Made by a program: the position numbers and the translations under genes. This document shows positions 14,201 to 46,857 of a stretch of 64,000 bases of DNA, one piece after another. The stretch comes from Lama guanicoe (Eukaryota). Position 1 is the stretch's first letter, and every line of letters starts with the position of its first letter. The DNA is taken from NCBI GenBank assembly GCA_013239625.1, contig MU053859.1, forward strand, positions 1 through 64,000, in the 5' to 3' direction. The notes beneath the pieces were generated by a model, which worked only from the letters and a program-made list of their open reading frames with translations, made no database searches and had not been told where the DNA came from.

Positions 14201-14453
14201 TGAGGGTAGAGTATGGTGATGGGCTCAGTGAAGTGATGAAGCTTTATGTTTTGTATAAAATGTTTCATATTACTCAGTTCTTAATCTGATTTTTGATTAC
14301 AGCTGTAGGTGTTTCCTAAACTGATTTCAATGGTTTCTTTTCAGGTTTGAAATTAGCGGGAATGGACTGTTTGCTTTCCTGAACACCGATGGAGTTTCTA
14401 GTTCCAGGGGACTTGTTGATATCAAGTGGATTTGTAGCAAACCAAGATTTTAA
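8189..14453 (+). CDS. CLEC2A: CLEC2A (KACL)-like C-type lectin gene, exons 2-5; exon 1 not identified; putative TM exon frameshifted, so possibly a pseudogene or null allele
   Basis: Spliced CTLD CPEKWIGARDKCFYFSDDTRNWTASRRFCSSQRSEFAQIDTPEDM/KFLKMCTGTSMHWTGLSRALGESWRWTDGTTFNAW/FEISGNGLFAFLNTDGVSSSRGLVDIKWICSKPRF* closely matches human KACL as recalled (DKCFYFSDDTRNWTAS, SRGFIDIKWICSKP), including absence of the second CTLD Cys pair; lies tail-to-tail with KLRF2. Confidence 0.85.
8271..8685 (+). repeat. Tandem duplication, about 208 bp x2, in CLEC2A intron
   Basis: Units 8271-8478 and 8479-8685 (aaactttttccggttc...gatcttcgac). Confidence 0.95.
10289..10464 (+). CDS. CLEC2A: CLEC2A exon: stalk and CTLD part 1
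   Basis: gttttcag acceptor, atg|gtagga donor; LFTKFSKYPQAMECPEKW...TPEDM; phase 1 to 0. Confidence 0.9.
10556..11078 (-). mobile_element. Solo LTR, ERV1-class (MER34-like), in CLEC2A intron
   Basis: TG...CA termini, near-TSD ataa/gtaa; 5' end shares tgtcacctcaaaat with the 6992 LTR. Confidence 0.7.
11745..12470 (-). mobile_element. LINE-1 3' fragments
   Basis: Typical L1 3'UTR antisense motifs ending tagattccacatgtaagtgaaatcat; boundaries approximate. Confidence 0.7.
13068..13171 (+). CDS. CLEC2A: CLEC2A exon: CTLD part 2
   Basis: tgaaag acceptor, tg|gtgaga donor; 104 nt; KFLKMCTGTSMHWTGLSR...TTFNA(W). Confidence 0.88.
14345..14453 (+). CDS. CLEC2A: CLEC2A last coding exon
   Basis: ttcttttcag acceptor; FEISGNG...KWICSKPRF, TAA at 14451-14453; AATAAA at 14452 and 14524. 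Confidence 0.9.
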
Positions 14454-16351
14454 TAAAGGAAAAAAAACTGGAAAATGAATAGAGTATTTCAAACATGAAG
14501 GAGAGGGCTAGAGTATAAACTTTAATAAATATTGGTGATTTACAATGTTGCATTGGTTTCTGGTGGACATCAGAGTTTTGCACGTATTAAACAAAGGAAC
14601 TAAAAATTGTTGAATGAATGAATGGTTATAGGTAGAACCTCATCAATTCAAGACATAACCGCAAATGACTATAACTCAATAAAAAAATTGTTAAAAGAAA
14701 GCTTGAAAAAAAAAAAAAGACACAACTGCTCACTATGAGCTCAGGTCAGGAAACTTCTGTTAAATAAGACCAAACAAAGTAGCAATGAACAATGAGATGG
14801 CCTTTACCACAAGGATGGTTATGATCAATTTAAAGGTATCAATATTGATGGGCCAGCCAAGACCTACAGCTTAAAATTCAGAGAAATATATGTGCTTTAT
14901 ATGGGTAAATATGACAAAATACTAACTCCAGTCACTTTGGTTTAAAGAAATGTTACAAAAGAATCACCTATGAACAGTCATGTATTTCAACAATATTTTA
15001 AAAATAAGGGAAAAACCACCAGGAGAAACTCTAAGTAATAGCCATAGATAAATGATCAGAATTATATATTAAAGTTACAAAGCTTAGATTGTAGACTATA
15101 AACTGGAATAATAACACTAAATGTGATTAAAACAATAGATTATTGGAAAAAAATTCAATTCCCCACGTGAGGACAAGGAGATAAGGCTTACGATGCCTCC
15201 TTGGATGTGTCACAAAATTGCAAATCTTCACGGTGTGGGGAAATTATATCAAATTGGCCCTTGTTATGTTAGCTTAAGTTTCATTTCTTCCCCACGTAAC
15301 TGTAAGCTCTGATTGCAGAAGGAAATGTGAGTGTAAGTGAATAGAGAGACATTTAGTAGACAGAGAAACTGAAGAAAAAGGGGATTATCTCGCCTACAGG
15401 GTAAAGACACAGAAGCACACAAACAAGTCCTTCTCCCGTATCTTTAGTGGAGGCTCGCATCCTAAATTACTGCAGATGGAACTTTCTGATAAATGAAAAA
15501 GGAGACTTGTGAACCTCACCCGTAAATGTTTTCACCAGTACTATATATGGGCAAATACTTGGCAAATATCAACATGCAATCAAGCATGGGCATATATTGT
15601 CTGTTCAGCATGTTGTCACCAAGAAAACTGGGAGCTATGAATTTTAAACACCATTGTATATTACAGTTTGATGTATTAACTTTTGGCTCAGTTTCAGTTT
15701 AGGTTTCACTTGACTCATAAGTTTTATTTACATTGTTGGTTCATGGTCACAAATTAATTTTAATTGCTTAGAATAATCCATACCTTGTTTTCCTTTGATT
15801 CACACATACTAGGATATAAATTCCTGGTGGCTTAGCGTGAACTACAAATGGAATTTTTGATGGAGTTAAATTACTACCTCACTGACATAGTGTTTCATTT
15901 ATTTTGAAATCTGAGAGAGTTTTAAATAAATGAGAGGAAAATAACGAACTTTACTTTGAATAGAATTGTAGTTAGAAAACTAAGGAAGTCTGACTGTTCT
16001 CAATATAATAATATTTAAATATAAACTTGATTAAAAGGGAATGAATTGTGGAATCACATTAAATACAAGATTGTATATTACTTCAAATAGACAGTTCATA
16101 CTTACAACGTCTGAGTATATTTTTTTAACCAGTTGAAGGTTTGATTTTTTTTTAATAAAAATTGAAAACAATTAACTAAGGGAAAAAGCCTACCAAGAAG
16201 GAAAAAAATTGCAGAACTATATCTCTGTACCTCATCTATTATTTCACCAAATGCACATAAAGAGTTAGAACTCAAGGAACACAACACACATAAGGAATAG
16301 GCAGGATTGGAAGATTAATGATTTTTTTAGACACTGAAGCAATAAGGAATA

Positions 16352-16588: not shown

Positions 16589-16706
16589 TCAGACAGCATC
16601 TCTCTGGCAAATGCCATTAAATTTGGAGTCACAGTCTTCAGAATACACTTGAGTTCTTGTTACGACAGCACAGTTCGTGTTACCCATTGATCCAATCACG
16701 GAAAAA
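16589..16706 (-). CDS. KLRF2: KLRF2 exon 6 (CTLD 3)
   Basis: ttctcctag acceptor; FSVIGSMGNTNCAVVTRTQVYSEDCDSKFNGICQRDAV then TGA; AATAAA on minus strand at 16486-16481. Confidence 0.92.
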
Positions 16707-19700
16707 CTAGGAGAAACAGGCCGACTACAGAACATTTATCTTAAAATAAGGACTGTATTTCTTAAAGCTTCCCCCCGCCAAACCTCTTCAAGTGTTTTTC
16801 TTCAGCAGTCAAAATGTTAGAATGAACTCTTCCCGTTCATTGCCAGTGATTGTATTTGGACAATCTTTTTGTTTTTTTTTTAATTTTTATTGAAGTGCAG
16901 TTGATTTACCATGTTAGTTTCAGGTGTACAGCAAAGTGATTCAGTTATACATAGACATACAGATATATATTTTCCTCTCAGATTCTTTTCCATTATATGT
17001 TATTACAAGAAATTGAATATAGTTCCCTGTGCTAGGCAGTAGGTCCTTGTTGTGTATCTATTTTATATATGGTAGTGTGTATCTGTGAACCGCCCACCCC
17101 TAATTTATCCCTTGCCCTCCCTTTCTCTTTGGGTAACGAGTTTTGTTTCTATGTCTGTGAGTCTGTTTTTGGTTTGTAAATAGAATTTGTATTTTTTAGA
17201 TCCCACATATAAGTGATGTACCACGATAACTGCCTTTCTCTGTCTGACTTACTGCACCAGGCTCTCTTGATTCGCCTGCCCTCCACGCCCTCCCAGAGGG
17301 ATGTCTCTCTTTGAGTAACATGGCCATAGGTGCTTTGGGCCATAACATGGCCCAAAGACTAGAAGGATCCCTGACTCTTCCTTCCATCTCAATGCACGAA
17401 TTACATGTATCAGCAAGTCCTGGGTCTCCCAGCTCCAGATTCTTTCCTAGCCCAAGCTAGATTACCTCTCCCTTACCTCGGGTCACGACTTTCTAACTAA
17501 ATTCAGTTTCAGTTTCAGTTTCAGTTCCCATCTATTCATTTTCCACAAGAAGCATAAATAATTCCCTTTAAAGGGTCAAGTAGATGTCAAAAAGAGTTTT
17601 TGGTAAAGACCGCATGGTCTGTACCATCTGCATGACAGATATTTTAAACACCAGTCAGAGTTGCAAAGCAGTAAACTAGGGATTTTTTTTTTTAACTTCA
17701 GCAGCATGATAGGGTTAAGAAAATGTGTGCACAGAATTTTTTTGGAGACAGCTATTTCCTTAATTATTATTTCTGGCTATTGCATATTGTTAAAAAAATA
17801 AAAAACAAACACTATGATAGCTATCTGTATTTAATTTTCCTTAAATAATTAAGTGCCAGCTTTTAAAATGAGATATGTTGCCATAGTAATATGGGTTTCC
17901 AAATAAAAAAAGAGCCTAGTTTTTTTTTTTTACTAATTTTTGTCAAAGATTGCCATCAAAGCAGGTCCAAAGAATGAATATTACTTCATACTTGAGTTTT
18001 ATGTTCATGAAAGATGATAATGAATGGAGAACAGAAATATCTAGGTGTAGATACATATCCAGAGTGAAAGGAACTACCACTCCATGGTCTTTGCTCCAAA
18101 CTTGCCACGTCTCAAGTGCTCTAGTGATGTGGCACGTAATGAAAATGAAAGCATGGAGAACATGTTAATGTATCTGAAACTTAAGAATTTTAAAGCCTCC
18201 TTATATGCATTACCTTATGTTGTTCACACAAGAATATGGTCACCAAACTTCATTGTTCTTTTCAAACATGTGAAGAAATTGACATCAATGAGTTTAAAAT
18301 AAATTTCTAAGGACAATACATGAAATTTATGCTTTCTGATTTCAGTCCAAGAGACGTTTTTTAATGTGACTTTTATCTTTGCATTTTGTATATAGAAAAT
18401 ATTTGCTTAATATTGTTTTAAATGAGATTTAAGTCAGCTTAACAATTTTTGCCTAATTACCATTTTTCAACAATTACTGATTTCCAGGAGCCATAATGAA
18501 CATCTTCTATCCCAACCAGTGGATGTTAAAAGTAGTAGAGAAAGCAAAGAAGAAAGGTGAAAAAGAAAGAAGAAAAAGAGAGAGAGGAAGAAAAAAAGTA
18601 GAAAAAAATTTCTCTAAAGAAAGGAGGAAAGGAAGAAAAAAAATAAAAAGACTAGAGAGCAAAGAACCTTAAATAAAAATACCTTTCAGTAAATAGAACA
18701 TCAGTATGCCACCAGCCCTCCTCCACAAAGAAGTACTTACTGTTTTTGTTCCATAAAAAGGTGCTCATTTATCCACATCCATTGTTTTCCTGGAGATATC
18801 ATATATAATCCAATCCAGCTAGGATGGCCCAATTTTAAACTCTTCTGTGTGAACTCCTATAGAGGAAATAGTGTATTCATTCATTCATTCATTTATTCAA
18901 AATTATTTTGATGGTTTCTATAGAGTAAGTCAGCGTGCCAGGCATTGATAAAATGGCAAAGAATCTTTTCGTTCAGAGTAATAGAGTTTCTTTTTTAATA
19001 AACAATGGAAATCATATTATGGGGAAGGAATGTTCAAAAGCAATGACTATAAATCACCCACACTTAGAATTGCACCTAGCAATTCATCCTTGGGCACTTA
19101 GATCCCATTTCTGATTCCTCACCAGCTCTTCTGAATTTTGAATCACTGGCAAATGTGCCTGGAGCTTTGCACAATCACGTTGACGCTCATTCCAAGTTTT
19201 AGAAAAAGTTGAAAACATGTAACATTTCCCTTGGTTCCATAGCCAGTCTTCTGGGCACACAAAATTATTTCCTGAAGGAAAAGGTAGGGGAAAAAATCAA
19301 TCAAACTACAGTTAATAGAGAAAGCGTGAATAGTATCAAATGTAATTGACTGGAAAATAGGTTTTGGACAACCTACTTTTTGTGATTAAAAGATACCTCT
19401 ATTAGCAGAGCAAGAATGAGATTAATTCATAATCTGTTTATTTCCTGGAATGGAGGCAGAGTTTTGGGCTATGGGTTGTCAAGAACAAAGCTTATGAATT
19501 CTGCCCCCAATAATTAGGGGAGACAAATAATATTTTAAAGTGTTTATTATTAACTAAAAAATTAAAAACCTGTTGTTTGAATTTCCCCACGGTCTGGTTC
19601 TGATTCCCTTTTCTTGAAGGTGTCCTTGCAACCTGCACTTCACGTCTGTGACATTACTTACTGTCACCCTTACTTACTTCATTGCATTGGTTGCATTTAT

Positions 19701-22700
19701 CCTCATGGGCTTTTAATTCACACTGCTGCCTTAGCCTTGAATAGCTTCCCTTCCTTCTTCATCCTCTAAATTATACCTGTCTTTTAATGTTCAATCATAT
19801 TTCCACCTCAAAAACAAATCCTTTAACTGGTCATAATTTCTGTCACCTCTAAAAGTCATAACACTCAGGTGTCACTTAGCAAAGGATGAATTGTCCATGA
19901 CCTAGTCACCTGTGAACGTCTCCATATCTATCTGACTGGAAGGTTCTTGAGATAAGTGTCATATTCATCTCCCTTTGATTATAGTGTCTAACTGTTGATT
20001 GTTGAATGGTTGAATTAAATACTGTTAATTAAGTTGGAGCATCACATACTTTTCATTGTTAATATTTCAGGTCTATCATCTATAAGCCTAAAATTTTGCA
20101 AAAGTTTATTTTAGGAAATTGATTTAATATGTCCAGCTAAGATGGGAAAACAAAGTAACATCAGCAGACATAACTAGAAGATTATCTTGGACTAATTTTC
20201 AATGTTTAAACATCATACACATCCTTAACTCATTAATATACTTGGTACCAAGAGTTGCCAATTGTAAGTAGATAAAATCTTGCAAAAACATCTGATGACT
20301 GAAGGTAATCGGGTTCTAATCTCAGTAGAACAAGTACACAGTCATCTGCTAGAAGGCATAAAATGACCTCAAATATACCTCCAATTTATGACTGGAAAGG
20401 GGGTATTTATTCACTATTATCAGTGAGAAGGAGCCATTTGAATGAAGTAATTCCATTTCATGGATATGGGTAGACTGGTCAGTACAGTTCTAGAGCTGCA
20501 AAACACACTGAAAGTACACCAAATAATCAGGGTAATGTGGTAAACATCAAAAAATGATGCAAAATGTGAACACTAATTGTCTAAAAGAGTTATTATAGTT
20601 AATTCAGCTTCAAGTGCCATGTTCCCTATTAAGAAGAAATATCATGGGGATGAGGATGGAGAAAAACATTTACTGAGCAACATTTTGTATCAATTCCTGT
20701 CTCAGATGCTTTGCATGTTAATAACAACTAACCCAAATTGCCATTATTGTGGACCAAGCAGGTTTCTAAGCACCTAACATATATTTATTTTTTCAAACAA
20801 CTTTATAAAATAGAGAAGTATGTTAAATGACATCATGGACATATAAAAAAGATGAATCTAGGCTATGAGAAATTATATAGAACCATGATCCATTTTTTTC
20901 CCATCAAATAGATGTCTAAGAAAAAATAAAAGGCAATAAAAAGGATGTACAGATTAAGAGACTCCAGAGACATTTTAACTTTGTTCTGCCCCCGATTTCT
21001 AACAAGTCAAGTGTGGGATAATGGTGATGATATTAAGAGGTTATTGTCAATTTTTTTTTTTTAGGAATTGTGGTAAATGAAATTCTAAAATGGCCCGAAG
21101 ACTACTGTCCTGTGTGATTTGCTTCTCTTCAGTGTGAACTGAACTTCAGAAAATGATGGTCTGTTACTCCTATGATTGTTGTATTATATGACAAAACAAA
21201 GTGATTCTGAAGACTAAAGAAACATCCCCAATCCCGTGATTTTGAGTTAATGAAAAGACAGAGATTATCCCAAGTAAGCCTGACTGAATCAGGTACAAGT
21301 CCTTTAGAAGGGAACTGGGCCTTTTCTGAAGAGAGAGAGAAGTCCTATTGTCTTTGGGGAATTAAACTTCCCCGTCTTGAGAGGATGTACAAGAATAACT
21401 CATTGGCAAGGAAATGCAGGGTGCCTCTAGGCACTTAGAGCAGCCCTGTGTGAGAGCCAGCAGGAAAGCTGTGCTCTCAGTCCTCCGGCCACACGTACCT
21501 GAATTGCACTAACGACCACACGAGCTTGCAAGAACCTCAGGTCCAGAAAGGTTCACGGTCTGGCCAACAACTAAACTGTATCCTGTGGGATCCTGAATAG
21601 ATAATTGAGTTAAGCTCTGTCCGGACTCCCAACCCAGGGAAACTCTGAGGCAATAAATTGTGGGTATGAACTATTAAGTGTGTGGCAATTTGTTATACAT
21701 CAAGAGAAAACTAGCACAGGAGTTACAGTGATATTGTGATTATGTTAAGCAAAAGGATCCCTTGAATATAAAAATCACAGACTGAAATATTTAAGTATTA
21801 AGTGGCATGATGGCTGGTAATAGCTTTAATATAATCTAGTTTGGGGGAGCTATGATGGTGGAGATACAGACGAAATCATGTTTAGTATATAATTGATAAT
21901 TGATGCTATTGAAAGGTACATGGAGATTTATTACATAATTCTCTCCTCTGTTATATTTTTCATGATAAAAATCTAAGAATATAATAAAACAAAATATTAT
22001 GAAGTAGACATTATCATCTCCCTCAATTTACAGATGAAAAAAGTGAGCCTATCCAACTCTCCCAAAGTCATATAACAGATAAATATCAGAGCTGAAATTC
22101 CAATCCAGTTAGTTTGGCTTCGTGGCCCATGTTTTAATCAATGAATCATACCACCTCCACTCTATTGTAATTGATGTTAGTGAGACAGAGTTCATCAGAG
22201 AAATAGAACAATTTATATGTTTGTGTGTGTGTGTGTGTGTGTATGTTTATAAAGAGAAAGAATGAGAGGAGAGAGAAAGAGATTTTATGAAACTGGTTCA
22301 TACCATTATTAAGGCTGACAAGTCCAAAATGTTCAGGCTGACAAGCTAGAGACTCAGGGAAGAGCTGATGTTGCAGCTTGAGTCTGAAGGCACTCTAGAG
22401 GCTGGATTTCCTCTTTCTTGAAGCCCTCCAGTATTTTTTCTCATAAGACCTTCAACGGATTGGATGGGGCCCACCTACATATGGAAGGTAACTTGCTGTA
22501 CTCAAAATCTACTAACTTAAATTCTAATCCTACCTAAAAGGAGCATTCACAGCAACATCTAAACTAGTGTTTGATCAAATATCTGGGTGCTATGCACTGC
22601 CCAGCCAAGTTCACACACAAAATTAACAGTTGGTTCAATCTTCACTAAATATTCTACGATGTAGTTATTACACTCCCATTTGAAAGTTTAATTTTCCTAA

Positions 22701-25700
22701 ATTCATGTGACCAGTTGATTGAAATCTCTTGATTCAAACATAGAACAACAACACGTTACAGACAGAATAGAATATTACCTGCAAGGCTGGTGATATTTTC
22801 TTTCTGAGAGAAGTCCATTTTTTTAACTGCACTCACTGCAAAGAAAAAAAGATAATAAGAAATATTTTTTAATGAATAACAATCTAGGTATATGAGAAAA
22901 TACTAGCACAAAATAAAGGCATGCAAATAAAAATTCAAAGTCTCCTTCTTTTTTTTTAATCAATATATCTTTTAAATCTCTTTTCATTTATACCAGTTCA
23001 CATATATTTGAATACCACTCTCTCTCCACTCCCTTTTATGATATTTGTTTGCTAATCTGTAAAATTTCTTATAGTTTGATGAGTTGCATCCTTTAACAAG
23101 TTCTTCAATCCCCCCCTGACAGTTAGATTTAGAAGCTTGTTAATATTAAGAATCAAAAAAAAGTTTTTTGCAAAAATATATTATAAGGGGTACTGAGAAA
23201 GTACATAAGGGAAAGGGAAAGTACATAATGTCTGGTTGTTCCACTTTTACTGGTGTTAATTTTATTGGTGATTTCAGATGTGGTCAGCATGAAGCCATCC
23301 TTTATAAAATGCCACATCATTCTCTAAGCTAACTGTTTTAGCAGCTGTTGATGTTCTTTGTCTCCATTTATTATTTTATTAAGGACTACCCAATAGTGGG
23401 TTTTTAAACTTCTGTAAATTCCTTCTGTAATTATGACTATGATTCTAAATAAAACAACCCCTTTTTCCCCATTGACTGTTTGGTTTTCCTAAAGCACAAT
23501 TCACATACAAAAGACTAAATCATATTGCTTGACCCTTTTCCTTTTTCTACTAATCTTTAGAATGAGTTGAGGCTCTAAGAACTCCCAAAGGTGACCAATT
23601 TGTTTTTAACTTTACAGCTTTTTTTGAGGCATAGTTGACACACAGTGAACTGCATTAATGATGCTGAGTAGCTTTTTCAGTACTTGTTAGATGTTCACGT
23701 ATCACTTTGATGAATTACCCGTTCAGATTTTTTGCCTATTTTTTTTATTGGGTTGTTTGTCTTTTTAGGACTGAGTTGTAAGAGTTTTTGTATATTCTAG
23801 ATATGATTACTTTGTTGGATATGTTTTATAAATAATTCCTCCCAGTTCGTGGCTTGAGTTTTCATTTTCTTAATGGTGTCTTTTGATAAGCAAATTTCTA
23901 TTTAAAATTTTGATAAAGTTCAGTTTATCCATTTTTTTTCTATTATGGATGGTACTTTTGGTGTTATGTCAAAGAAATGTTTGCCTAACCCAAAGTCATC
24001 AAGAATTTATTTTGTGTTTTAGTTCTTATTTAGGAGTTAATTTTTGCATATGATATGAGGAGAGATCTAATTTCTTTTCTTTTTTTTCTTTTTTTGTATA
24101 TGGATATCTAGTTCTGGCACCATTTGTCGAAGTGATTAAATCCTTTGAAACCTTTCCTGATTGAATTGCCTTGACACCTTGTCAAAAAGGAGTTGATGAT
24201 AGATGTGTTGGTCTTTTGCTGGACTCTCATTCTGCTCTGGTGACCTGCATGTCAGTGTAGTGTTATGCCAGCACCACACTGTGCTGATTACTATAATCAT
24301 GTAAATATATAAATGTATATATGTGAATATGCATATTTCCATGTAAACTTTAGAGTCAGCTTGCCAATTTCTATGAAAACATCTTGGAATTTTGACAAGA
24401 ATCTGCTGAATTTATTGATCAATTTGAGAAGAATTGCCTCTTTAACAATATTAAGTCTTCTGATTCCATAAACAAGGTACATAGCTCCACTTACTTCAGC
24501 CTTTAATTTCTTTAGGCAATGCTTTCTAGTTTTCAGTGTATAACTCTTGTATTATTTCTTCCTTAAATATTTGGTAGAATTCACTAGTGAAACACCGTAG
24601 GCCTGCTGTTTTCTTTGTGAGAAGGGTTGTGTTTTGTTTTTGTTTTTGTTTTTGTAAATTCAGTTTCGTTAATAGATATGGAAGCTATTCAGTTTATCTA
24701 TTCATCCTTGAGTGCACTTTGGTATTTTGTGTCTTTCAAGAAATTTGTCTATTTCATTAAATTCGTTGGCATAGAGTTATTCATAATCTTCCTTTCTTGT
24801 CTTTGGGATCTGTAGTGGTATCCCCTCTGATTTCTGATATTGATAATTTGTGTCTTTTCTCTTTTTTCTTCCTGATAAGTCTGAGAAGATGTTTTTCACT
24901 TTTATTTATCTTCTAAAATATCTAGTTTTCGGCTTTATTGATTTTCTCTGTTTTTCTGCCTTTCATTTGATTGTGATGCATTTGAAGAGAATACATACTA
25001 TGCTGTTGTTGGTCAGCATGTTCTGTCAACGTCAGTTACATCAAGTTGGTCTATAGGGTTGTCAAGTCTTCTATGTCTTTGATTTTTTCTGCCTACTCAC
25101 TCTGTCTATCCTTGAGAGAAGAGTATGAAAATAACCAACAATGATGAGTTTTCCTATTTCTCCTTTTAGTTCTCCCTTTTTCTCCTTCATGCTCTTGGAA
25201 GCTCTGTCACTGGCTGTGTAAATGTTTAGGACTGTCACCTTTGTTGTTGCATGATCTGTCCCATGTATGGTCACGCAAAGTCCCATTAACTTGACTCCTG
25301 GATCTTTTTGACATAATCTTAGATCTGTGATCGTCTTCTTGTTCCCCTCATGACAAGGCATTTCAAAATGTGTTTTGTACCTGTCTTCCTTCAATCCTGG
25401 AATTGGCCATTTCTCTTAAGAGCCTGGTTCTTTTTGTTGGGAACAAAGTCTCCCTCTTCTGCTATACTTCTATCCTCTCCTGCCCCAGAATTCACCTCTT
25501 TTTACCATATCTATTTTTACTCCTTTAAGTGTTAATCACAATTCTAAATATTGTGTGCATTCTTAAACTTCACTCCTATTACTTTTTTGTGTATTACTTT
25601 TTCTACTGAACTTTCAAATCAATGTTATTTCATCTTGTTGCAGGCACACACACACTCAAAATCTCCTTTTTACTGTATCAAGTGCCTTCAGCTTCTTACT

Positions 25701-28700
25701 TGCATTATTTTCAGATTGTTTTCATATGAACTGAATTAATTGCTTTCCAGGAACATAAAACAGCTGATAACTTGAAATGCCTTTTCATTAGATTCTTGGG
25801 CTAGCTTCACTCTAACTAAAAATCAGCCCCACTCCCTTATTTATTCCAGGAGAATGCGTGGAAAATGTGAGTTAAAATTGAATTTGTTCATAAGTTTGAA
25901 GACATTGCTACAGTGGTGTCTTTTCATGTACATTTAAAAATCTGGTGCCAGTTTGTCTTTGCTTTGGGAGAAAATGAATTCTTTATGTAAACTTTTAAGA
26001 TCATGTCTTTACCCATGGTATCCTGAAATACAATAAATCTATCTATCTATCTATCTATCCATCCATCCATCCATCCATCTGTCATCTATCCATTTATACT
26101 TATTTTTGTGTCATATTCTGAATTTTGCTGATTCTTACAAGCTGGAAATTCATGTTTTTGCTTTTTCTCCTGAAATTTTTAAAAATATTATTTTTTATTA
26201 TTTCTTATGTACTTTTCCCTCTATTCTCTTTTTCTGAGAAATTGTTAAATATTGTCCTTCCTGTATGACCGTATTTTCTGTTTTTGTCTCAAATATTCTA
26301 ATATTTATTTATATTTAAAATTTTTTTCTGACACTTTTCTCTATGTTCTGGAATATTTGGTTAGCTACCATTTTTTTTTTTTAAGATAGAAAGGATGTAG
26401 GAAATAGCCAAGCTATGCAGTAGATCAATACACTACTTCCTTCACCCATTCCAGAACCAAAATAAGAGGACACACACCCCATTGCACCAACACTCCATAA
26501 AAGAGGAGAGCCCCAGTGCATGCATCTAGTTTTATATACATAGTCATATATCTCATTGTTTTAAGAACATTTTTTGGACGTGGTATGGTGGTAAAAGCCA
26601 CTGTATGAGTGGAGTAAAAGGTTGTCAAGACACCAGCCTAAAAGGCCATTCCTTGAACAATCTTTCTGTTAATTGCTTTGCTTTAGACCTCACTTTACAC
26701 TCTGGACTCTTATCTCTGAAAACGGGGTCCTGCCTGGGTTTTGCCCTGTGGGATAGCTTTCATCTAGATGTAGCCATCTGCTACATTTTCTCTGAACTGT
26801 GGTTCTCTCCATTGATTTATCCAATAGCATTATCCCATCCGCTTTTCATTTTCTTTACAATTTTCTTCTCTTTCCATTCTGCACTTCTGTTAGTTTATTC
26901 TATTTTCGTTACTGTTTTTACTGTTCTAATATAAATCCTGGGAGAGAGCATATGCAAATGTTTTTGATCAATACTTTGTTCTGAGCTGAAAACTATGGAA
27001 AATATTTTTAAATATTTGGTCAAATACTAGTCAAAGTACAAGCACAACCTTAACTGAAATGCAAATATTAAAATTGTCACAGCATTATTAGAATAAAAAT
27101 ATCAATAGGAAAAATATTGCCCCACTAGTATTTCTTCAATGTGTTAAACTTTACTGGTTTCTTCTCAATAGTGCCTTTCTCAAAAAGAATGATTGAGCCC
27201 TACATTTTCAGGAACTATAGTTTCAAGAGAAAGAAAATTATAGAAACCATTAATTAGTCTGGTTGTTTCAAAAAGAACAACTATAGAATACACACATTAA
27301 ATACCACTTCAGAAAATAAAAGGTGCAGATACTTTAAAATTATTTTCTCTCAAAGTGATACCAATGAGCACATACTTTTTTTTTATACGAATATATCATT
27401 ACTTTTTATAAAATGGTAAGTCAGTCTTTTACTGGTGATTCTTCATAAGAAGAGATGTGGAATATATGTTATTTTTATATTTTATATTAAAATATTTCCT
27501 TCTATATGAAAATAATTTTGTAATATGACACAATGGACTGGTCAGTTTAATTTACCAATATTGGACTCTAATGTGGAGCTTATCTTGATATTAAAAGTAA
27601 TTAAAGATCAACTTTTTTTCTGAAAGTGCAAAAATAAGTAAAAATTCCATAGTCACACCAAAAGTCCAGGCCAATCACTGCTGTGATGATAATGAGGATC
27701 CCAATGCATACAAATACTAGCAAAAGACAGTGATATTGTAGATACAGAGGGACATCTGAAATGGTGAGATTTTTTTCAGGAACTTTAGAACTCTGTGATT
27801 ATTCACTTTATGAACACTTTCCTGTTTTACTTTTATTACAGAGACAACCCATGTTCATTTTAGACATAGTGTTAGAATTGATTGTTTATTTATAAACTTT
27901 TTCCTTTATTTAATTTATTTTTCTTTATTTAATCTTTATTTTATATTAATTTATAATCTAATTTATGACTAACATTTATGATTAATTGAAAATAACAAAT
28001 ATTTACAGTCCAAAAACAGAGATGCAACTGTTATTGAATGTGTTGGATTACAATGTCATTGTCTTGCTTTGCTAATTATTTGATGATTTTTTTGATGACA
28101 AAATGATTTATTAATATACAGTATACACAATGTACAGTAGTATATTAAAACTATTACATAATAGGGTATAAAAATATAAAATACATGATTTATACTCTAT
28201 ACACAGAATAATATAATATATATTATATATCAGGTACTGCCATGGGTATTATTTTAACGACTCACTGTAACAAATAAAAGAAGAAAAAGAACATTTATTG
28301 AAGTTCTATTATGTACCAGTCACTGTACTGGGAATATTGCCGTGTTATTTCATTTTTATGTATGATATACTGTATTTTCCTGGCTTTGGTATTTTGGACA
28401 GGAATCAGCATCAACCTAAACAGCATGGACCTCTGATTAAGGATGCTTATCTAGAACTGTGCCATCTACTCCCTTGGCTCAGAGTTGGCAAGTCTCTTTA
28501 TAGAGAAGTAACACGCATGTCTCTGTTTACTCTATACCTACATTAAACAGGGATATGCATGCTATGATCCTCTTTCAATTTTATCTATTTTTGCCACACA
28601 CTGGCACTTTTGGATAAGTTGGAATACACACTCTTTCCACAAAAAAGGTGAAGGCAGATATCTTTCTATATGCAGACGGCATAGGGATAGTATTGCAACC

Positions 28701-30981
28701 TAGAAGCATCCTGGCCAGACCACTTACCACACCACTGACAAAGTCAAGTAATTTGATACTCAGATAATTGTCTGCCAATTTTAGTTAGTTTATAAATAGA
28801 GAAACGCTTAATTCCACTACCTTGGTTACCTTCTAAGTCATAGTTTTAAAATGCTATTTCTCAAATTGGGTAATAAGTGGATGTTTCACTTCAATTAATT
28901 TTGATGGACTTGGTATCACTGATAATGTCTATAGTACACACTAATAGGATGTGCTGTAGGCAGTAAAACTTCTTAAATGTGTTGCAGTGTTGTCTGCATT
29001 ACAGAATAAATCCAGAATAAGTTTCTATTTTTCCCTCTTGCCTGTGGATATTTCTTCTGCTCAAACAGAAGTAGAAAGACCTCTACTTAGCCCCAAATCC
29101 TCAAAACACATTTTTGCAATTTTATGAAAGGATAGAAATCCCAGGCGCATGGCTCTGCAATTAACTGGTTCTATCTCTGCCGGAGAGGGAAATTTTAAAC
29201 TCTTGGCCAAATAATATTATAGCTATAAATTAAAAATCAATATTCTCTTGCACAAGCCGCAGTTATAAAATGTATCAGGCCAGGTACCTGGAATGCACTG
29301 CCCTGGTCCATTCTAGCCAGTTGCTGTTGGCCCGCGTGGTTCAGTATTAAGACATTGCTCTTTGAATCCCATTATTATCACTACTCAAGAGCACTAATTA
29401 TGTTACTCACATCCGATTTATGATAGGAAGATTTCCTTTCTGGATTTAGCAACAAGATTAATTATATCCATCCTAAGCAATAGGTGTAAATTTGTATCTT
29501 GACAGTGTGAGCCAAATAAGTGCTCAGGTTTCTCTTACTCATCAATAGTAAGGAAGCTTAGAAACCAGTTGACATCAAACACAGACATACTCAGGGTATG
29601 CAATTTTTGCTGAATTGCAGGCTTAATTTATGCTGCCAGTCTTACTCATCTTTCACTCATAATTCAAATGGACGTTACCTGGTGTTCTGTGTATTTATAC
29701 TCAGATTTCATGTCTTCACTCCCTTTCTATTATAAGATGGTTTATACATTAAAGAGCAAATAGTTAATAATTTAATGTCCACATTAAAAACAATCACACT
29801 ATAGATTTGCTTTTTTATTGAGTTTAAGAGGAGAAAAAATAATTGCCAAAAGCCACGCACCTAGTTTAGGGTCCAGTTCAGTCAATTTGATTCCAATGGT
29901 CTTAGTTTTCATTACAGCAAAGTTAAGTTACTAATGAAAAAAGGAAGTGTTGGTTCCTGGCATTGAAACCGCAAAAGGGACCCTGAGCCTTCAAATGATG
30001 AGAAAATACCATGTTTCTGAAAAACAATGTTTTTTGAATTTGCAAGATGGAAACTGAGATAGTGTGTGAGAATGTCCTGCAATCGTGTATGTGGCAGAGC
30101 TGCGGTAGTGACCAGCGAGTCTAAATTTTTGACCCATGTCATCCCGGCTGAGATCTTGGCTGTTTCAACAGAATTATTTAAAAAATTTATTTTGGACAGG
30201 CTGAATTTAGACACCAGTATTGTTTATTAAACTTGTCTATAGATCTGAAATAAAAACCCAAAACTAAAAACAACCTTGTCGCAGATACAGCAGCCTCAAA
30301 TGACAGAGATAAATGCTTTCTTTTATTTTGCCCTTCTCTCGTTCTTAGTGGACTGTTCTGCCAATCTCATGTATCTTTTGTGAAGATTGAAAAATACAAT
30401 ATGTATGTGTGTGTGTGTGTGTATGTGTGTGTATATATATATATATGATTTTTAAGCTGTAAAACACCATAGCACCCTTGTTACTTCCCCCATCAGCCCT
30501 AGTTCTTTACCTTCTGAGTGAAATAGATACCTTGTAGATATGTAGATAACATGTATGTAGATAACATAACCTAGTAGTCGCTTCTCCTTCTTATGTTTCA
30601 TAGAAGTAATTTATATAAAAAATACTATTTTCGACCTTTCAGTTGAAAGTTACACTCTTACTCATATGCTACTACTTTGAGGGGATTATAAATCATCCTA
30701 TTAGCATTTCTCTGGCTCTTGTGGCTGCAAAAATCGAGTTTTCATTGCTGATGCTTACATGAGCCTCAACAATTGATCTTAGACAACTTATGAGCAGCTT
30801 TTAAATCCCAGAATACGGTTAACTTTAACACTTTAAAGATTTCAAAGATAGTTATTCTCTTAGGAGAATAATGCAGTTTTAAACTGAAGTCTGAATGCAG
30901 AGGAGCAGTATTCCTACCTTTAGACCTTTTTCTGGATTTGAAGTGATTCTTCAGCATCATTTAGCCATCTTCATTCTCCAT
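16589..30981 (-). CDS. KLRF2: KLRF2 (NKp65) gene, 6 exons; nonsense at codon 7 (hemITAM Tyr); 190-aa frame open from Met at 30960
   Basis: Exons 30918-30981, 27657-27755, 22779-22826, 19123-19271, 18741-18856, 16589-16706, all GT-AG and phase-compatible; motifs MENEDG, LYxQYxCLLL, KKMDFSQ, VYSEDC, GICQRDA match human NKp65 as recalled. Confidence 0.9.
16866..17255 (-). mobile_element. LINE-1 3' end
   Basis: Poly-T followed by L1 3'UTR antisense motifs. Confidence 0.75.
18741..18856 (-). CDS. KLRF2: KLRF2 exon 5 (CTLD 2)
   Basis: ctctatag acceptor, gtaagt donor; EFTQKSLKLGHPSWIGLYMISPGKQWMWINEHLFMEQK. Confidence 0.92.
19123..19271 (-). CDS. KLRF2: KLRF2 exon 4 (CTLD 1)
   Basis: ttccttcag acceptor, gtgagg donor; NNFVCPEDWLWNQGKCYMFSTFSKTWNERQRDCAKLQAHLPVIQNSEEL. 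Confidence 0.92.
21069..21718 (+). mobile_element. MaLR LTR (MLT1-like)
   Basis: tgtggt...start; aataaatt...gtggcaatttgttatac...gaaaactagcaca end. Confidence 0.65.
22180..22630 (-). mobile_element. ERVL LTR (MLT2-like) with internal (TG)n
   Basis: gacctTcaacggattggatggggcccacc and ccagccaagttcacacacaaaattaac motifs. Confidence 0.7.
22779..22826 (-). CDS. KLRF2: KLRF2 exon 3 (stalk)
   Basis: tgcag acceptor, gtaata donor; 48 nt; FKKMDFSQKENITSLA(G). Confidence 0.85.
23600..25440 (-). mobile_element. Old LINE-1 ORF2 fragments
   Basis: Degenerate translations (STVWCWH, YGIRRLNIVK, LNIYTASDRASK) resemble L1 ORF2; boundaries approximate. Confidence 0.7.
26037..26092. repeat. (ATCT)n(ATCC)n compound microsatellite
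   Basis: Direct reading. Confidence 0.85.
27657..27755 (-). CDS. KLRF2: KLRF2 exon 2 (transmembrane)
   Basis: tttcag acceptor, gtgact donor; 99 nt; DVPLYLQYHCLLLVFVCIGILIIITAVIGLDFW. Confidence 0.88.
30918..30981 (-). CDS. KLRF2: KLRF2 exon 1 (cytoplasmic) containing in-frame TAA at 30963-30961
   Basis: ATG GAG AAT GAA GAT GGC TAA ATG ATG CTG AAG AAT CAC TTC AAA TCC AGA AAA AGG TCT AAA G|gtagga. Confidence 0.88.
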
Positions 30982-39800: not shown

Positions 39801-42800
39801 ACTGAGTGAGTGTGTTGGTACCATATTGTGACTTTGACATTTTCTTGATGACCAGTAATATTGTTAAGCTCCTTTTCATATTTATAGCTCATTTAACCAT
39901 AACGTTTTGTGATGGACACGTTCAAATACTTTCCCCACATTTTTATTAAGCTAGCTCTCTTTTTTGTTGTTGTTGTTTGATTCGTAAGAGTTCTTGTGTA
40001 TGCTAGAAGAAAACCTTCTGTGTATCTGTCTTAAATATCTCCTTCCATCGTGAAGCTTAGACTTCTGTATGATGTCTTTCAATGAACAGAGTTTTGTAAT
40101 TTTAAAATTGTATGTTTTTCTTTTTTCTTTTCTCTCTATTGTTACGACATTTTGCATCCTGTTTAAGAAATTTACTGTATTCTAAAGATATGAAGATATT
40201 GCTCTAGAGTTTCTACTATAATATTTTATTTAACTTCACATTCAGAGGTACAATTTTGAAATTGATTGTTAATGAATGTTAAAATATAGAAATCAAGATT
40301 TATACAGATGTGTATATATATACATATATTTAATTCAGCTAGTCTTTTAATCTGGAATAATTTATTGAAAGTCCAGATTTTACAGTTACTCCTGGTGTTG
40401 TACTTACACTGAGTCTGGAAAAATTTATAAACCTGTACCCATCCTTATGGTATCATACAGAGTATCTTCATTGTCTTAAAAATCCTCTCTGCTTTACCTA
40501 ATTATCTGCCCCCTATCCCGTCCCCTGACAATCACAGATCTTTTTATTGTCTCTGTAACTTTGTCTTTTCCAGAGCGTCATATAGTTGGAATCTTACAGT
40601 ATGTGGCTTTTACAGATTAGCTTTTTTCACTTAGTAATATGCATTTAAGGATCCTCTGTGTCTTTTTATTTCTTTTTTGCCCTGAATAATATTCTACAGT
40701 CTGGATATACCACAGTTTATTTATACAATTACCCTCATTGAAGGGCATCTTGGTTGCTTCCAAGTTTCAGCAATTGAGAATAAGACTGTTAACATCCACG
40801 TGCAGGTTTTAGTGTGGACATAAGGTTTCAACTCTTTTGGGTAAATACTGAGGAGTGCAATTGCTGGATTATATGATAAGAGTGTGTTTAGTTTTGTAAG
40901 AAACCACAGGACTGTATTCCAAAGTGCCTGTACAATTTTGCATCCTCACCATCTACGAATGAATATTCCTGTTGCTCCACGTCCTCACCAGCAACAGGAA
41001 ATCTAATATGTGTCTTATTAGTTATATATTGTTTTATTATTTTCATTGCTTTCTTAGAGACTAAAACACATATCCCAGATTTATAGCAGTCTAATATAAA
41101 TCAGTCTTTTTATTACAGTCAGATAACGATAGAATTTCATTGTATTTCATTTACCCAGAATCGGTAAGTGACTTCACACGAGAGAAATCACAGTTTGCTC
41201 TAAGACGGCCTATGTATCACTGAGTTTGAAGTTGAAAGGGATGCGGGTTCCCTGTCAAATTCTGCACTGCTGTCATTTAACTTAGCAGGAGTTTGTTTTT
41301 TAGCTTGTTATGTGACATAGTTATATAATTCTGACCATGATCATAATCTTGTACATCACAATCTTGTCTTTCTTCAATGATCTCAAAACACAATGATGCA
41401 TTACTTCATCTGGTCCTTAAAATATGTATTTGTCTTATTTCCAGTTAAAATAGCTCAAGGTGCTAGGCACTATTGCCCGGATAATTGGATTGGTTCCAAA
41501 GATAAATGCTACTATTTTTCTAAAGAAGAGAAAGATTGGAATTCTAGTAGATACAACTGTACCTCTCAACATGCTGACCTAGCTGAGATCGACACTGCAG
41601 AAAAGATGGTAAGTAATTTAAAATGCATTCCTTATGAATTATATTGAGTAGAGACACCGGAAATATTCAAATGTCATTATGATTTTAAAAACTTTCCAGA
41701 CATGCCTGTCTATATAGGCAGAATGTTGAAGATGTTCAGAATATGCCACGGGAGATACAATCGAAAAGCCCAGTGATGTTTTGTTTGGATAATATGAGAC
41801 TTACATCAAGTAGTGGACCTGAGAGCTAACTTTTGTGTTTTAAGGGATATAAAGAGAAGAGCTTGATAATATTTTGAAACTTTTTAAAATCACAAAGAGA
41901 AAATTGCCTCAGGAAGAATGAAATTCTCCGTTTCACACCCTTTGAGGAAACTTCCTCTGACTTCGCAGTCTTGCTTTGCTGTCTCGGGGGTCCCGCGGCA
42001 GCCTCCCCGTCCCACTACCAGCAAGGCAACAGATGTGTCCCTGCAAGTTTCCCCCGAGGCTGAAGTACGAGTTTCCAGAGTGCAGACACCGTATTTTATT
42101 TGAAATTGTGTCCATTGCTGTAGCATAAAGGCAGGCACAAAATAAGAGCTTAATGGATCTTCGCTGAATAAATATTGATTTACATAGAGAAATTTTATAA
42201 GTCAGGAGCATCCCCAAGAACTTTCATACGGGACTGTGAGACTCTGTACCACTGCGCTTGTGAAATCTGTTCTTTCCCTGGGTGACTTACGTGGCAAACT
42301 TATGTTTTACTTTCGTTTAGTCTCTTTAAAAGTCAAAGGTCAATGTAAGACATAATTAGCTTAGTTAAAATATTTGTATGTGAATAATGTGCAATTAAGA
42401 TGTGTTTAAGCGTAAAGCAGCACAACATAGCAGTCAACACTGTTAAAAGAGAATTGTGTATTACTTTTATGGTGAACAAAGTACATTTATGTAATCTACC
42501 TGAGAGTTGGTTCAGACTTAAAATAGATATGAACTAGGTTGCGGCAATTTATAGATCACTGCAAAGAAACTTTACAGAAGCAACAAAAGACATGGAAATC
42601 TGAATAAAATGTGAAAAACTAGGTAGAGAGCAGACACAGCATATAAGTAAAATGTAGGCTTAATTTAATAGAAATAGCTTCTGTTGTCAATAATTTCACT
42701 GTTGAATTTTACTAGAGTCTTGAAATGAACGTTCTGAGAAATCCTTAAACTTTTACACTTCCTTTTGGGGAGAAAAAAAGCTAAATTTGCAGTGAGATGA

Positions 42801-45710
42801 AAAAATAATGAGTGACAAACAGAATGAGGTCTTTACCTCATACGATATCTGTTGACAGAGGGTTAAAAGTGATGTACAGAGGAATTTTAAAGGACACTTT
42901 ATTTTAAATAGTTTAATAAAGTATTATATATGTTTACTTACATTGCAAAATACTAATTTCAGTTACAATGAGATGCCACTTGTTTCATGAAATTTTTCCC
43001 ATTTTATTTGCAACGATTCGGAATTATGTTGCCTTTTTAAGAAACAGCGACATGGTCTATCCTTTACTGAGCAAATAATAAGCAATATTTCTCACAGGAC
43101 ATGCTCTAGGAAATACACCTCCCATTTTCTTGTCACCAAGATCACAACTACTGAACCTCATCCAGTTTTCCCAATTATCTGGTAACATGTATCCTATTGG
43201 TTTCCAAAGCATTTATCCTTTCTTACATTTTTTTTTCTGCCTTAAAACAAGCTCCCTGCTACAACTAGAGGATGAATTTTCCTTTTCTCCCTGGATGTCT
43301 GTGTTTATCATGGAATCTTCTGCTCTTCCCTTCCAGATCCATCTCTGAGAGCACGTGCTATGGGAAAGTCTCCCAGAAAAACTCAGATGATTCTTCCTGT
43401 AAACTAAAATTTCCCTTTGTGTTTATTTTACTCACAATCTTCTCATCTAGTAGAATACTTTCTAACTCTACGTTTACATAAATTTCCTCACTATAATTGA
43501 AACCCTGTGAAGCCAGGGACACTGCTTTATTAACCTGTTCCTTTGTAAACCCACAGTTTACTCCCAGTGAATTGAATTTTTTTAAATAACTTCATGAAAT
43601 GCTATAGAAGATGGTATATTAAAATGCCAAAGTTTACCCAGTGTTATTATTATCAGTTAGGAATGGACCACAGTGTTGTGATCTGTCGTAATTCCTTTAT
43701 ATTTATCATAAAATTGAAACATGGAATGATACAAGGTCAAGCTTATGGTTTCCCAGCTATTTAGTGGCAGAACAGACTGAATAACTTTCTGTGTATAATA
43801 TAATTTTATGGTGAAAAAAAGGAGGGGTCTAAGGTAGCAAAAAGTTTCAATATTGAATGAGTAAGGAGAAAAGGAGAAATATCAGGAAAAAAATAAATTT
43901 TTCCCTGAATGGTATCTTCAGAAATCTAAAAGTTTAACCAAAAAAAAAAAAAGAATTTTTGAGAATTAGATTCTAAAGGAACTGGATAAATCATGTGTGC
44001 ATGTGTGTGAGCATGTGCCCAAGTGTGTGTGTGTGTGCACGCGCGCACGTGCCTGTGAGAGTTTGGGAGAAATTAAAGTAAAATATTACATTAAACTCAA
44101 TATACTAGTATTTCCTGGGAAGTGAAAAAACATTATTTAAAATATCTGATGATTAGGAAGACTGTGCAAGGACTCAGCTGAAAATTCTAGCTTTCCAGGA
44201 GTTTACAGTTTAAAAATCCTGGAGGAATAGATTTTCAACTTGAATATTTACCAATTTAGAATCAAAAGTATCAAGAAAAGTGATCTCATGGCCTTTTTTT
44301 CACATATGAGAAAACTGAGGCTCAGAGGGTAAAATGCTTTTTCAAGGTCGCAGACCTATTTTGTGGTAAAGCCAGGAAATGAACCTCTGTCACCTTACTC
44401 TTCACAACCTGCAAAGCGAGAGGGACGTGATAAGTTGTAGTGAAAACTGACCAGTAAAATTATGAAATTTATTTTGTCTCTAAAGGAGTTTCTTATGCGC
44501 TTCAAGTGCAGTTGGGATCACTGGATTGGGCAAGTTAAGACGGAAATTCAAACAGGACAGTCGATTGATGGAACTGTATTTAAGAATTGGTGAGTTTCTT
44601 TCTTTCTGGGACTATTTAAACTTATGTAATGTAACCGCCTCCACAACCTGTCCTTCAGCTCCATTTCTCTAGTGGCCACAATCAGCGTGCATGTAGGAAA
44701 AATGAACGAGGGAAGATGTAACATGGATTGAGATCCGTTCCAAGAGTCAGCCAGAGAGGCTGGAAAACAAGACATAAGGGGAAAGACCTCTTAGTTGGTT
44801 ATTTTGAAAATAAATACCTGAGATTCATATACCCAGTTTAAAAAAAAATTAAGCTTTTGCTTGATTTTAACCTATTTTCTCCAATTTTATAGCTATTCTG
44901 CAAGCTTTATGCTACCTATTTGCTGACATCTCTTACAATTCAGATTACATTTGTTTATTTTAACCTGCTTTTATTTGCACTGATCGTACAGTTTATCCTG
45001 GACTTCAAACCTTCCATTTTACAGTATGGAAAATTGGATCTGAAGAACTGAGTTCACGGCACACATGACCCCAGTATAACCATCCCAAATGGTGACTGCC
45101 GGCCACTTAGCCACTTAGTTTATATTAGAATTTCTCAGTAACAGCACAGCTGACATTCTGGACTGAATAATTCTTTGCTGTGTTGAGGGAGCACTTTCTT
45201 GTGCATCATAGGATGTGAACAGCATCTCTGGGCCTCTACCCACTGGATAATAGCAATTACCCCTGCCGCGCTCCACTCGTGACAGCCAAAAATGCCTCCA
45301 GGTATTTCCAAGTGTCCCTCGCAGGGGTGGGTGGAAGGCAAGATCACCCCGGGGTTAAGAACCACTGGTTTATAATACTGGTGGCTCCACTCGTTACATG
45401 TAACTTTATGTCAGTTTAACAAATATAAATTCTTGGAAGGGAGACTCAGTTTGGTACAGACATTAACCCTAGCAAGAGAAGACTGTGTCACAGCGTATTT
45501 TTTCAGAACTCTGGGCAGATAATATTTTTTTAAAATATGGCATTGACAAAGGGAGAAATCACAGGACTCCCTAGTACATAATGTTTAACTTTTTATTGTA
45601 GGGATCTTGCGACAAGAAATGAAATATGTACTTACCTTAATGAAAATGGTCTTGCAACAGCCAGATGTTACACAGAGAGGAAATGGATTTGCCAGAAGAA
45701 AATAGGCTGA
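33777..45710 (+). CDS. CLEC2B: CLEC2B (AICL) gene, 5 coding exons, 180 aa, open frame
   Basis: Exons 33777-33852, 38620-38709, 41445-41608, 44486-44589, 45602-45710 sum to 543 nt; KCYYFSKEE.DWNSS.YNC..QHADL, KCS.DHWIG and ATARCYTERKWIC match human AICL as recalled; tail-to-tail with KLRF1. Confidence 0.92.
34755..34890 (-). mobile_element. tRNA-derived SINE in CLEC2B intron 1
   Basis: attgaacccagggcctcatgcatgctaagcacacactctaccactgaactata, same family as 1114-1230. Confidence 0.8.
36567..37292 (-). mobile_element. LINE-1 3' end with a younger L1 3' end nested at 36759-37112
   Basis: Inner 14-bp TSD tcatttgcaaatct (36745, 37113); outer TSD aaagcttt. Confidence 0.85.
38620..38709 (+). CDS. CLEC2B: CLEC2B exon 2 (transmembrane)
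   Basis: ttttttcag acceptor, gtgagt donor; 90 nt; DIKDTCKKYSACAFILAILLVANIVLIVLQ. Confidence 0.88.
38940..41000 (-). mobile_element. Old LINE-1 fragments with MER58-like DNA element at about 39165-39485
   Basis: L1 antisense motifs; aagggccagatagtaaata...ttaggctttgc is MER58-like; boundaries approximate. Confidence 0.6.
41445..41608 (+). CDS. CLEC2B: CLEC2B exon 3 (CTLD 1)
   Basis: tttccag acceptor, gtaagt donor; KIAQGARHYCPDNWIGSKDKCYYFSKEEKDWNSSRYNCTSQHADLAEIDTAEKM. Confidence 0.93.
44486..44589 (+). CDS. CLEC2B: CLEC2B exon 4 (CTLD 2)
   Basis: tctctaaag acceptor, gtgagt donor; EFLMRFKCSWDHWIGQVKTEIQTGQSIDGTVFKN(W). Confidence 0.9.
45127..45368. mobile_element. hAT-Charlie MER20-like element
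   Basis: gacattctggactgaataattctttg...ggcctctacccact...gtgacagccaaaaatg...ttaagaaccactg. Confidence 0.7.
45602..45710 (+). CDS. CLEC2B: CLEC2B exon 5 (CTLD 3)
   Basis: ttattgtag acceptor; DLATRNEICTYLNENGLATARCYTERKWICQKKIG then TGA. Confidence 0.92.
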
Positions 45711-46857
45711 ATAAGAATGGATTGAAAACTATGAGTAAGATGGTTTTAAATATCTGCATCCTTTCTTCCTTTCTCTTTGAATAATTTTCAACATTTCTTT
45801 GCTTTACTATTATAGCCTGATAATATATCTCGATGATTCTTAAAGCAATTTCCTTATTATTTTTTTACTTTTCAAATGGCCTGGATCTTTTCTTTTCTAT
45901 ATCAATTTTAGAAGAATCTGGTAATTTCACAGTCTCTATAGGTCAGTTTGGGTACTGTTGTATTTATATATTATTTTCTTATTTATTTGTATGTCTTGCA
46001 TTGATTTTTGTCTTCTAATTTACAGGTTTTCTAAACAATTACTACATATTATTTATCATATGTGTCCCTGCTATACATGTCTAATGTTTTGGCTGTTGCA
46101 ACAATGTAATTTTATTATATTTCTATATAGAAATGCAACTGTTTTGGGCATTCTTGTCCTGTTCAACATACATTTTGAAAATTCTTAATTTTGAATGATT
46201 TATGGCTTCATTTAAATATTATAAAACACAGCATTTAGTAATAGTCATTTTTATTTTTTTCCTGCCTTATATAACAACTACTTATTTCTAGTCTAATTAA
46301 AATGGATAGGACTGCCAGGACAATATTCATGGTAAATATTCTAGACTCGTTCCACATTTTAAAGAAAATGCTTCTAATATCTCAACATTAGTAGTGTTGT
46401 GTCTAGTTTTTTATATCCTTTCTTTTTAAAGTTAAGGCATTTCTTTTCTACTATTTTCTAAGAGAATTTTTTTTGTAGGAGGAGATTGTCCATTTTATTA
46501 AATATGCTTTTCTTCCAGCACCTAGTTCGTCTTCCTTAATCTTTTAATGTAGCAAATGACATAACTTTCTATTGTTAAAGAACTACTTTGCATTCCTAGA
46601 TAAAATTCAACTTGGTCATGATGTGATATCATACTTAATCTAGATAGATTAATTCTGATATTTGTTTTTTAATGTTCTTACTTTTAAAATCATGAGTGTG
46701 ATCACCCATTTCTACTGTCCAGTTACTTAGACATTTAGAGCCTTTACCACCCTTGTAAAACTTTCCCAAGGAAAGCAGGGATTATGTTTTAAATAATTCG
46801 GTGAAGACATGGTCGGAAGATGTGTTGCTTTCCAGTTACGCCATAAAATTGTGAATG

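Follow-up and report, generated by a model that had tools for sequence, protein, structure and literature searches.

In humans, the axis formed by NKp65, the product of KLRF2, and its ligand KACL, the product of CLEC2A, connects group 3 innate lymphoid cells (ILC3) and natural killer (NK)-type cells with keratinocytes. NKp65 signals through Syk, and Tyr7 of its hemITAM (the hemi version of the immunoreceptor tyrosine-based activation motif) is essential for this signaling (PMC3819593, PMC12349009; these papers and those cited below are represented here by excerpts of their text). KLRF2 orthologs of alpaca (XP_031526540.2, P0005) and of Camelus dromedarius and Camelus ferus (XP_006192242.1 and others, P0004) carry this tyrosine at codon 7. 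Here, we analyze a stretch of 64,000 nucleotides (nt) from Lama guanicoe (assembly GCA_013239625.1, contig MU053859.1, positions 1 to 64,000 of the forward strand), referred to below as the window, in which KLRF2 has the same six exons and 197 codons as in alpaca and Camelus and the same place between CLEC2A and CLEC2B/KLRF1, but reads TAA at codon 7. With moderate confidence, we interpret this gene as a real, young loss-of-function allele, null or near-null, within a decaying receptor-ligand pair.

KLRF2 is encoded on the minus strand, and the coding part of its exon 1 (30981-30918) reads ATG GAG AAT GAA GAT GGC TAA ATG ATG CTG AAG AAT CAC TTC AAA TCC AGA AAA AGG TCT AAA G/gtagga. It translates as MENEDG-TAA-ATG-ATG-LKNHFKSRKRSK, that is, MENEDG-stop-MMLKNHFKSRKRSK, up to the donor AAG/gtagga. 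Where the N-terminal hemITAM of NKp65 (DGYxxL) needs a tyrosine that can be phosphorylated, at position 7 and ahead of xxL, the acidic lead-in MENEDG is present as in NKp65, and the signaling tyrosine is replaced by the stop (30961-30963). Two in-frame ATGs, codons 8 and 9 (30960-30955), come next, in the contexts taaATGa and atgATGc. A spliced model fitted against the alpaca KLRF2 protein joins exon 1 to exon 2 with the transmembrane segment (27657-27755), exon 3 with the stalk FKKMDFSQKENITSLA (22779-22826), exon 4 as the first exon with C-type lectin-like domain sequence (19123-19271), exon 5 with the WIGL motif (18741-18856), and exon 6 with the stop codon TGA (16589-16706). This model comprises 594 nt, corresponding to 197 codons plus TGA, and all five introns are of the GT-AG type. 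Its sole in-frame stop and sole defect is the TAA at codon 7, and the frame opened at the ATG at 30960 encodes 190 amino acids. The first ATG is flanked by G at both -3 and +4. An earlier note, made from the sequence of this stretch, had described a stop in place of the hemITAM tyrosine with two in-frame ATGs abutting it, a first ATG in strong context, and five open downstream exons with canonical splice sites, and the sequence and the spliced model bear out each of these points. As for the position of the lesion, 89 of the 1764 possible single-base changes in the 196 sense codons produce a stop, and 72 codons, in addition to Tyr7, are one base step away from a stop. That the stop landed at codon 7 is statistically unremarkable.

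Two further features of this gene were observed. At exon 3, tandem acceptors lie 9 nt apart (22826-22835, minus strand; tttgcag/TGAGTGCAG/TTAAAA), both in frame. Use of the upstream acceptor would change the junction residue from Phe to Leu-Ser-Ala-Val, a net gain of three residues, and the camelid RefSeq models of KLRF2 use the downstream one. Intron 1 contains a (CA/TG)n microsatellite at 30367-30450, roughly 470 nt downstream of the donor that ends exon 1.

The identification of the gene as KLRF2 by the earlier note was corroborated by several comparisons. A search with exon 4 retrieved a 206-amino-acid protein (P0001), whose 90% cluster has eight members. Seven of these are named, all as killer cell lectin-like receptor subfamily F member 2, from Camelus dromedarius, Camelus ferus, a third Camelus accession, and Vicugna pacos. 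The alpaca ortholog matches human NKp65 (PDB 4IOP_B) with an E value of 3.9e-53, compared to 4.7e-21 for KLRF1, and the window exons match alpaca KLRF2 at 79-92%. Pfam assigns Lectin_C to the alpaca ortholog with 57.4 bits; single exons are too short for this assignment, exon 4 of the window reaching 19.5 bits against a cutoff of 22.6, and exons 5 and 6 giving no Pfam match on their own. The layout is that of a type II membrane protein, with a hydrophobic segment in exon 2 and one C-type lectin-like domain, whose exons 4 to 6 are open. In addition, the gene lies in the conserved position, tail-to-tail with CLEC2A and beside CLEC2B and KLRF1. These similarities identify it as the KLRF2/NKp65 ortholog, closer to KLRF2 than to KLRF1 or other KLR/CLEC genes. 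In the assembly (2.05 Gb), KLRF2 occurs at one locus, with exon 1 in a single copy, and the disabling lesion thus lies in its sole KLRF2 copy. P0001 itself derives from a contig of 1,637 nt and represents a camel KLRF2 protein across all six exons, which looks like spliced RNA from a Camelus-like source rather than from the animal of the window. It runs beyond the normal stop as W-TTKADLCI; since TGA and then TTKANLCI stand at this place in the window, the gene caller probably took TGA as Trp.

The tyrosine missing from the window is present in its relatives. P0001 and all seven named members of its cluster read MENEDGY, the retrieved camelid KLRF2 proteins all read MENEDGYMMLKNHFKSRKRSK (MENEDGYMML in the alpaca and Camelus RefSeq proteins), and five of five more distant KLRF2 representatives aligning from residue 1 read ME-x-EDGY. 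Its presence in all retrieved camelid proteins and in these distant sequences implies that Tyr7 is ancestral and the stop derived. The stop therefore appears to have arisen within the South American branch or within the sampled animal. By the same protein-level comparison of camelid exon 1, the lesion is young, as the earlier note had proposed, considering that alpaca and camels keep the tyrosine and that the remaining gene is open. The ATG-ATG pair behind the stop represents the ancestral Met-Met of Y-M-M-L and hence no compensating gain. ORFs (open reading frames) spanning KLRF2 exon 1 were also sought on other camelid genomic contigs (query 30766-30981, with X at the stop), which gave no candidate. 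Exon 1 was also sought in metagenomes, first by an exact pattern in which the third base of the stop was N and then by a degenerate back-translation; both scans returned 0 matches.

Counted from 18 variable positions in a comparison of alpaca, camel, and window, the window protein is identical to alpaca KLRF2 at 192 of 197 codons (five differ) and to camel KLRF2 at 181 (16 differ). The genome is thus alpaca-like yet distinct from the alpaca reference. With camel for polarity, the changes specific to the window are the Tyr7-to-stop change, G37V in exon 2, R89M in exon 4, and S177T in exon 6, while alpaca-specific changes are L129S and, in one of two RefSeq versions, T175I. Three missense changes and one nonsense change on the window lineage face one or two changes on that of alpaca, numbers too small for a test of selection; they give no sign of a stronger constraint on KLRF2 in the window lineage.

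This divergence bears on whether the TAA is a base-call or assembly error, in which case the animal would have TAT or TAC and a normal NKp65. The stop is a single-base difference in a draft of 55,231 contigs, and the window contains an 853-N gap (3200-4052), both of which make such an error conceivable. However, four further KLRF2 codons differ from alpaca, so real divergence of such a size is present, and in a polished assembly lineage substitutions should outnumber base errors. Neither does the local error rate appear high: five exons of KLRF2, six of KLRF1, four of the five of CLEC2A, and three of CLEC2B are open with canonical junctions. We consider an error at this codon distinctly unlikely.

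The adjoining ligand gene is also damaged in the assembly. CLEC2A is encoded on the plus strand, tail-to-tail with KLRF2, and its exon 5, which contains the stop codon (14345-14453), ends 2.1 kb from the KLRF2 stop. Exon 1 (6090-6237) is open and differs from camel in 7 of 49 residues. Exon 2, the transmembrane exon (8189-8252), is 64 nt long, in place of the 60 nt implied by the camel protein. The 4 additional nt map to a TG run at 8206-8219, a (TG)7 by hand count, where the camel protein implies (TG)5. As it stands, exon 2 reads ...CVCVCSEYYSGHSSN, a stop follows in exon 3, and CVCALSITVVILLT, which agrees with the camel transmembrane segment at every residue, is found in the +1 frame of exon 2. 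The CLEC2A frame is thus shifted and the membrane anchor lost because of (TG)7 in place of the implied (TG)5. A rescue by alternative splicing was rejected. The sole other acceptor, at 8197, would drop 8 nt, leaving a net change of -4, and the sole other donor for exon 1, at 6241, would add 4 nt, giving +8 together with the +4 of exon 2, both out of frame. Skipping of exon 2 would keep the frame, resulting in a protein without membrane anchor, as in the camel isoform P0033. As in this CLEC2A isoform, the transmembrane exon is omitted partly or entirely in the camelid RefSeq isoforms P0003 and P0009 of KLRF2, which would give anchorless forms.

Downstream of the lesion, the lectin part of CLEC2A, which starts with exon 3 (10289-10464), is open. 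It has two window-specific changes, L38F and, in exon 4 (13068-13171), a Thr codon at 13107-13109 by which WIGL reads WTGL, whereas alpaca and camel both have WIGL. The alpaca RefSeq entries for CLEC2A (XP_006200055.1 and XP_031526543.1, P0034) describe a lectin-domain model of 117 amino acids, which starts at the MEC of exon 3, lacks the cytoplasmic and transmembrane parts, and is identical to the window lectin domain in 114 of 117 residues. A model beginning at an internal Met is the form expected if annotation masks an upstream lesion, and it hints that the exon 2 frameshift may be shared with alpaca. At the C terminus, the window reads PRF-TAA-TAA (14451-14456, plus strand) and alpaca likewise has an early stop after PRF, while camel continues for nine residues (LMKEKKTGK). 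This stop is a South American shortening common to the window and alpaca. Neither the window (DGT) nor alpaca (DGA) keeps the Asn of the camel sequon NGT.

With its hemITAM tyrosine replaced by a stop, KLRF2 of the window can give a membrane NKp65 only by a start at codon 8 or 9. Most ribosomes are expected to synthesize MENEDG and then stop, because the context of the first AUG is strong. The earlier note had left two outcomes side by side, a null allele or a membrane NKp65 lacking its signaling motif that could serve as a decoy or adhesion form. In the latter case, re-initiation at the ATG at 30960 or 30957 would produce a receptor of 189 to 190 amino acids that binds ligand but cannot signal, from an mRNA escaping nonsense-mediated decay (NMD). 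From either ATG, the frame continues into an intact transmembrane segment and lectin domain. Nonsense-dependent re-initiation giving N-truncated proteins is documented, with a limit of 13 to 18 codons for the upstream ORF, and so is evasion of NMD by AUG-proximal stops (PMC6614817 and PMC3273812, respectively). The mini-ORF of six codons is well within this limit, but the stop-to-ATG spacings of 0 and 3 nt are far from the described optimum of about 80 to 90 nt (PMC6614817), and re-initiation after upstream ORFs was reported to give incomplete protection from NMD (PMC10187673). Moreover, leaky scanning would run into out-of-frame ATGs inside the mini-ORF at mRNA positions 8 and 14, the second in good context (aagATGg), and the mini-ORFs starting from them end at a TGA overlapping codon 9. 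For ribosomes scanning beyond codons 8 and 9, out-of-frame ATGs at +43 and +89 precede the next in-frame Met, which itself is located past the transmembrane segment. As the ATG pair is ancestral rather than acquired and the adjoining CLEC2A, as assembled, cannot encode a membrane-anchored KACL, we regard a working truncated receptor as highly improbable. A hemITAM-less NKp65 with high-affinity binding would be an activating NK/innate lymphoid cell receptor that natural evolution had turned into a dominant-negative or adhesion form; its existence here is very doubtful in view of the broken ligand gene, the spacing of zero, and the AUGs in other frames. At best, the allele would yield a small amount of signaling-dead receptor next to a ligand that is not membrane anchored in the assembly. 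The low prospects of re-initiation and the lack of a membrane anchor in the ligand favor the null allele among the two outcomes of the earlier note, and the decoy fits poorly with the +4 frameshift in CLEC2A, the ancestral ATG pair, and the spacing of 0 to 3 nt.

The neighboring paralogous pair, KLRF1 and CLEC2B, provides a control on the same contig. The gene block consists of CLEC2A (plus strand, 6090-14453), KLRF2 (minus strand, 16589-30981), CLEC2B (plus strand, 41474-45716), and KLRF1 (minus strand, from 51809 to contig position 64654). KLRF1 (NKp80) is open in all six exons, of which exons 2 to 6 lie in the window (51809-58727, minus strand). Its exon 1, beyond the window at contig position 64654-64571, reads MQGEERYMTL and keeps the tyrosine of the atypical hemITAM. 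The three lectin exons of CLEC2B are open as well, and KLRF1 and CLEC2B thus form a paralogous pair without lesions. Gene conversion from KLRF1 as the origin of the KLRF2 stop was rejected, since KLRF1 has Tyr at this place. Another candidate for KLRF1 exon 1 (62524-62586, E value 35) was discarded, since it has neither an ATG nor a donor. In CLEC2B (AICL), the middle lectin exon (44486-44590, plus strand) reads HWIGQ...GQSIDG; human CLEC2B has HWIGL...GQWVDG at the same exon, and the conserved Leu and Trp positions look changed in the window.

The contrast between the two pairs is informative as to whether the stop is a private or low-frequency null allele. In this scenario, the TAA is real but segregating, possibly heterozygous, NKp65 still works in the species as a whole, and the frameshift of CLEC2A is polymorphic or an artifact. 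A single haplotype of a single assembly was seen, the alpaca reference has the tyrosine, the remainder of KLRF2 is intact, and polymorphism of the NK complex was described as higher in alpaca than in camels (PMC6614441), all of which are compatible with segregation. Against it, two disabling lesions are found in partner genes on one contig and none in the paralogous pair, and the alpaca CLEC2A model without transmembrane part speaks against a private ligand defect. A private allele is thus possible but unlikely.

Taken together, we favor a loss-of-function allele of the following origin. A single-base change would have converted the Tyr7 codon to TAA in the single-copy KLRF2, so that ribosomes starting at the strong first AUG would halt after six codons and the normal receptor would not be made. 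Expansion of the TG repeat in the transmembrane exon of CLEC2A would have broken the reading frame of the ligand gene. This ligand lesion may be shared with alpaca and may be the earlier of the two, after which constraint on the receptor would have been relaxed. This sequence of events presupposes a genuine TAA in the animal, little or no protein output from the allele, a ligand lesion that is common to alpaca and older than the stop, and relaxed constraint as the consequence of that lesion.

Several observations weigh against this interpretation. The stop is a single base, known from one fragmented assembly of one animal, and the CLEC2A lesion lies within a dinucleotide repeat, where length errors arise easily. 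A short RefSeq model suggests that alpaca would share the frameshift, and the same model would result from an assembly gap or a poor gene prediction. The open KLRF2 exons 2 to 6 and the undamaged splice sites are also compatible with a gene still in use; still, so young a lesion would leave these exons open anyway, and they are therefore not evidence for function. Finally, KLRF2 and CLEC2A of the dromedary were described side by side as receptor and predicted ligand and look functional (PMC6614441), which limits any decay to the South American branch or the sampled animal.

If the lesions are real and widespread, llamas, guanacos, vicunas, or alpacas would be natural knockouts of the NKp65-KACL axis. 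They would represent a case in which a receptor and its ligand, genetically linked in the NK complex, were lost jointly, perhaps starting with the ligand, with a bearing on the question of why such pairs stay linked. A practical warning is that automated annotation can mask lesions of this type via an internal Met start, the form taken by the 117-amino-acid alpaca CLEC2A model. The stop would have no wider meaning if the allele were private or the assembly wrong at this site. In the KLRF2 and CLEC2A literature, as far as the excerpts extend, we found no published KLRF2 stop or CLEC2A frameshift in South American camelids; the supplements of PMC6614441 lie outside this scope and might bear on the matter.

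The closest relatives of the locus are its camelid orthologs, from which the window KLRF2 is set apart by the stop and the three window-specific missense changes. Its arrangement relative to CLEC2A matches that of human NKp65 (4IOP chain B), tail-to-tail in both, at 3 kb in human (PMC3819593) versus 2.1 kb in the window. The alpaca CLEC2A model, confined to the lectin domain, has the same early PRF-stop, and the window adds L38F and the WIGL-to-WTGL change to it. With N-truncated p53 isoforms (PMC6614817) and NMD-resistant AUG-proximal stops (PMC3273812), the window KLRF2 has in common a stop a few codons after the start and in-frame AUGs downstream. However, the re-initiation site in the excerpted cases lies tens of nucleotides downstream, at 42 nt in the p53 example (PMC6614817), whereas the candidate ATG of the window abuts the stop. 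Losses of NK receptor genes, frequent in single mammalian branches, are a further parallel: mice have no KLRF genes, and sea lion and elephant seal yielded no KLRF2, according to the excerpted text of PMC11484026. In camels, KLRH, KLRJ, and NCR3 are pseudogenes, NCR3 being disabled by premature stops (PMC6614441). The window resembles these cases in that one branch of the mammals has a disabled NK-complex receptor gene. Unlike these losses, the KLRF2 described here is otherwise complete, with one young nonsense codon, and its linked ligand gene is also hit. The KLRF2 stop is in itself a further instance of the known loss of NK complex receptor genes, and the pairing of a receptor lesion with a ligand lesion is its most interesting part, most likely reflecting an ordinary joint decay of receptor and ligand.

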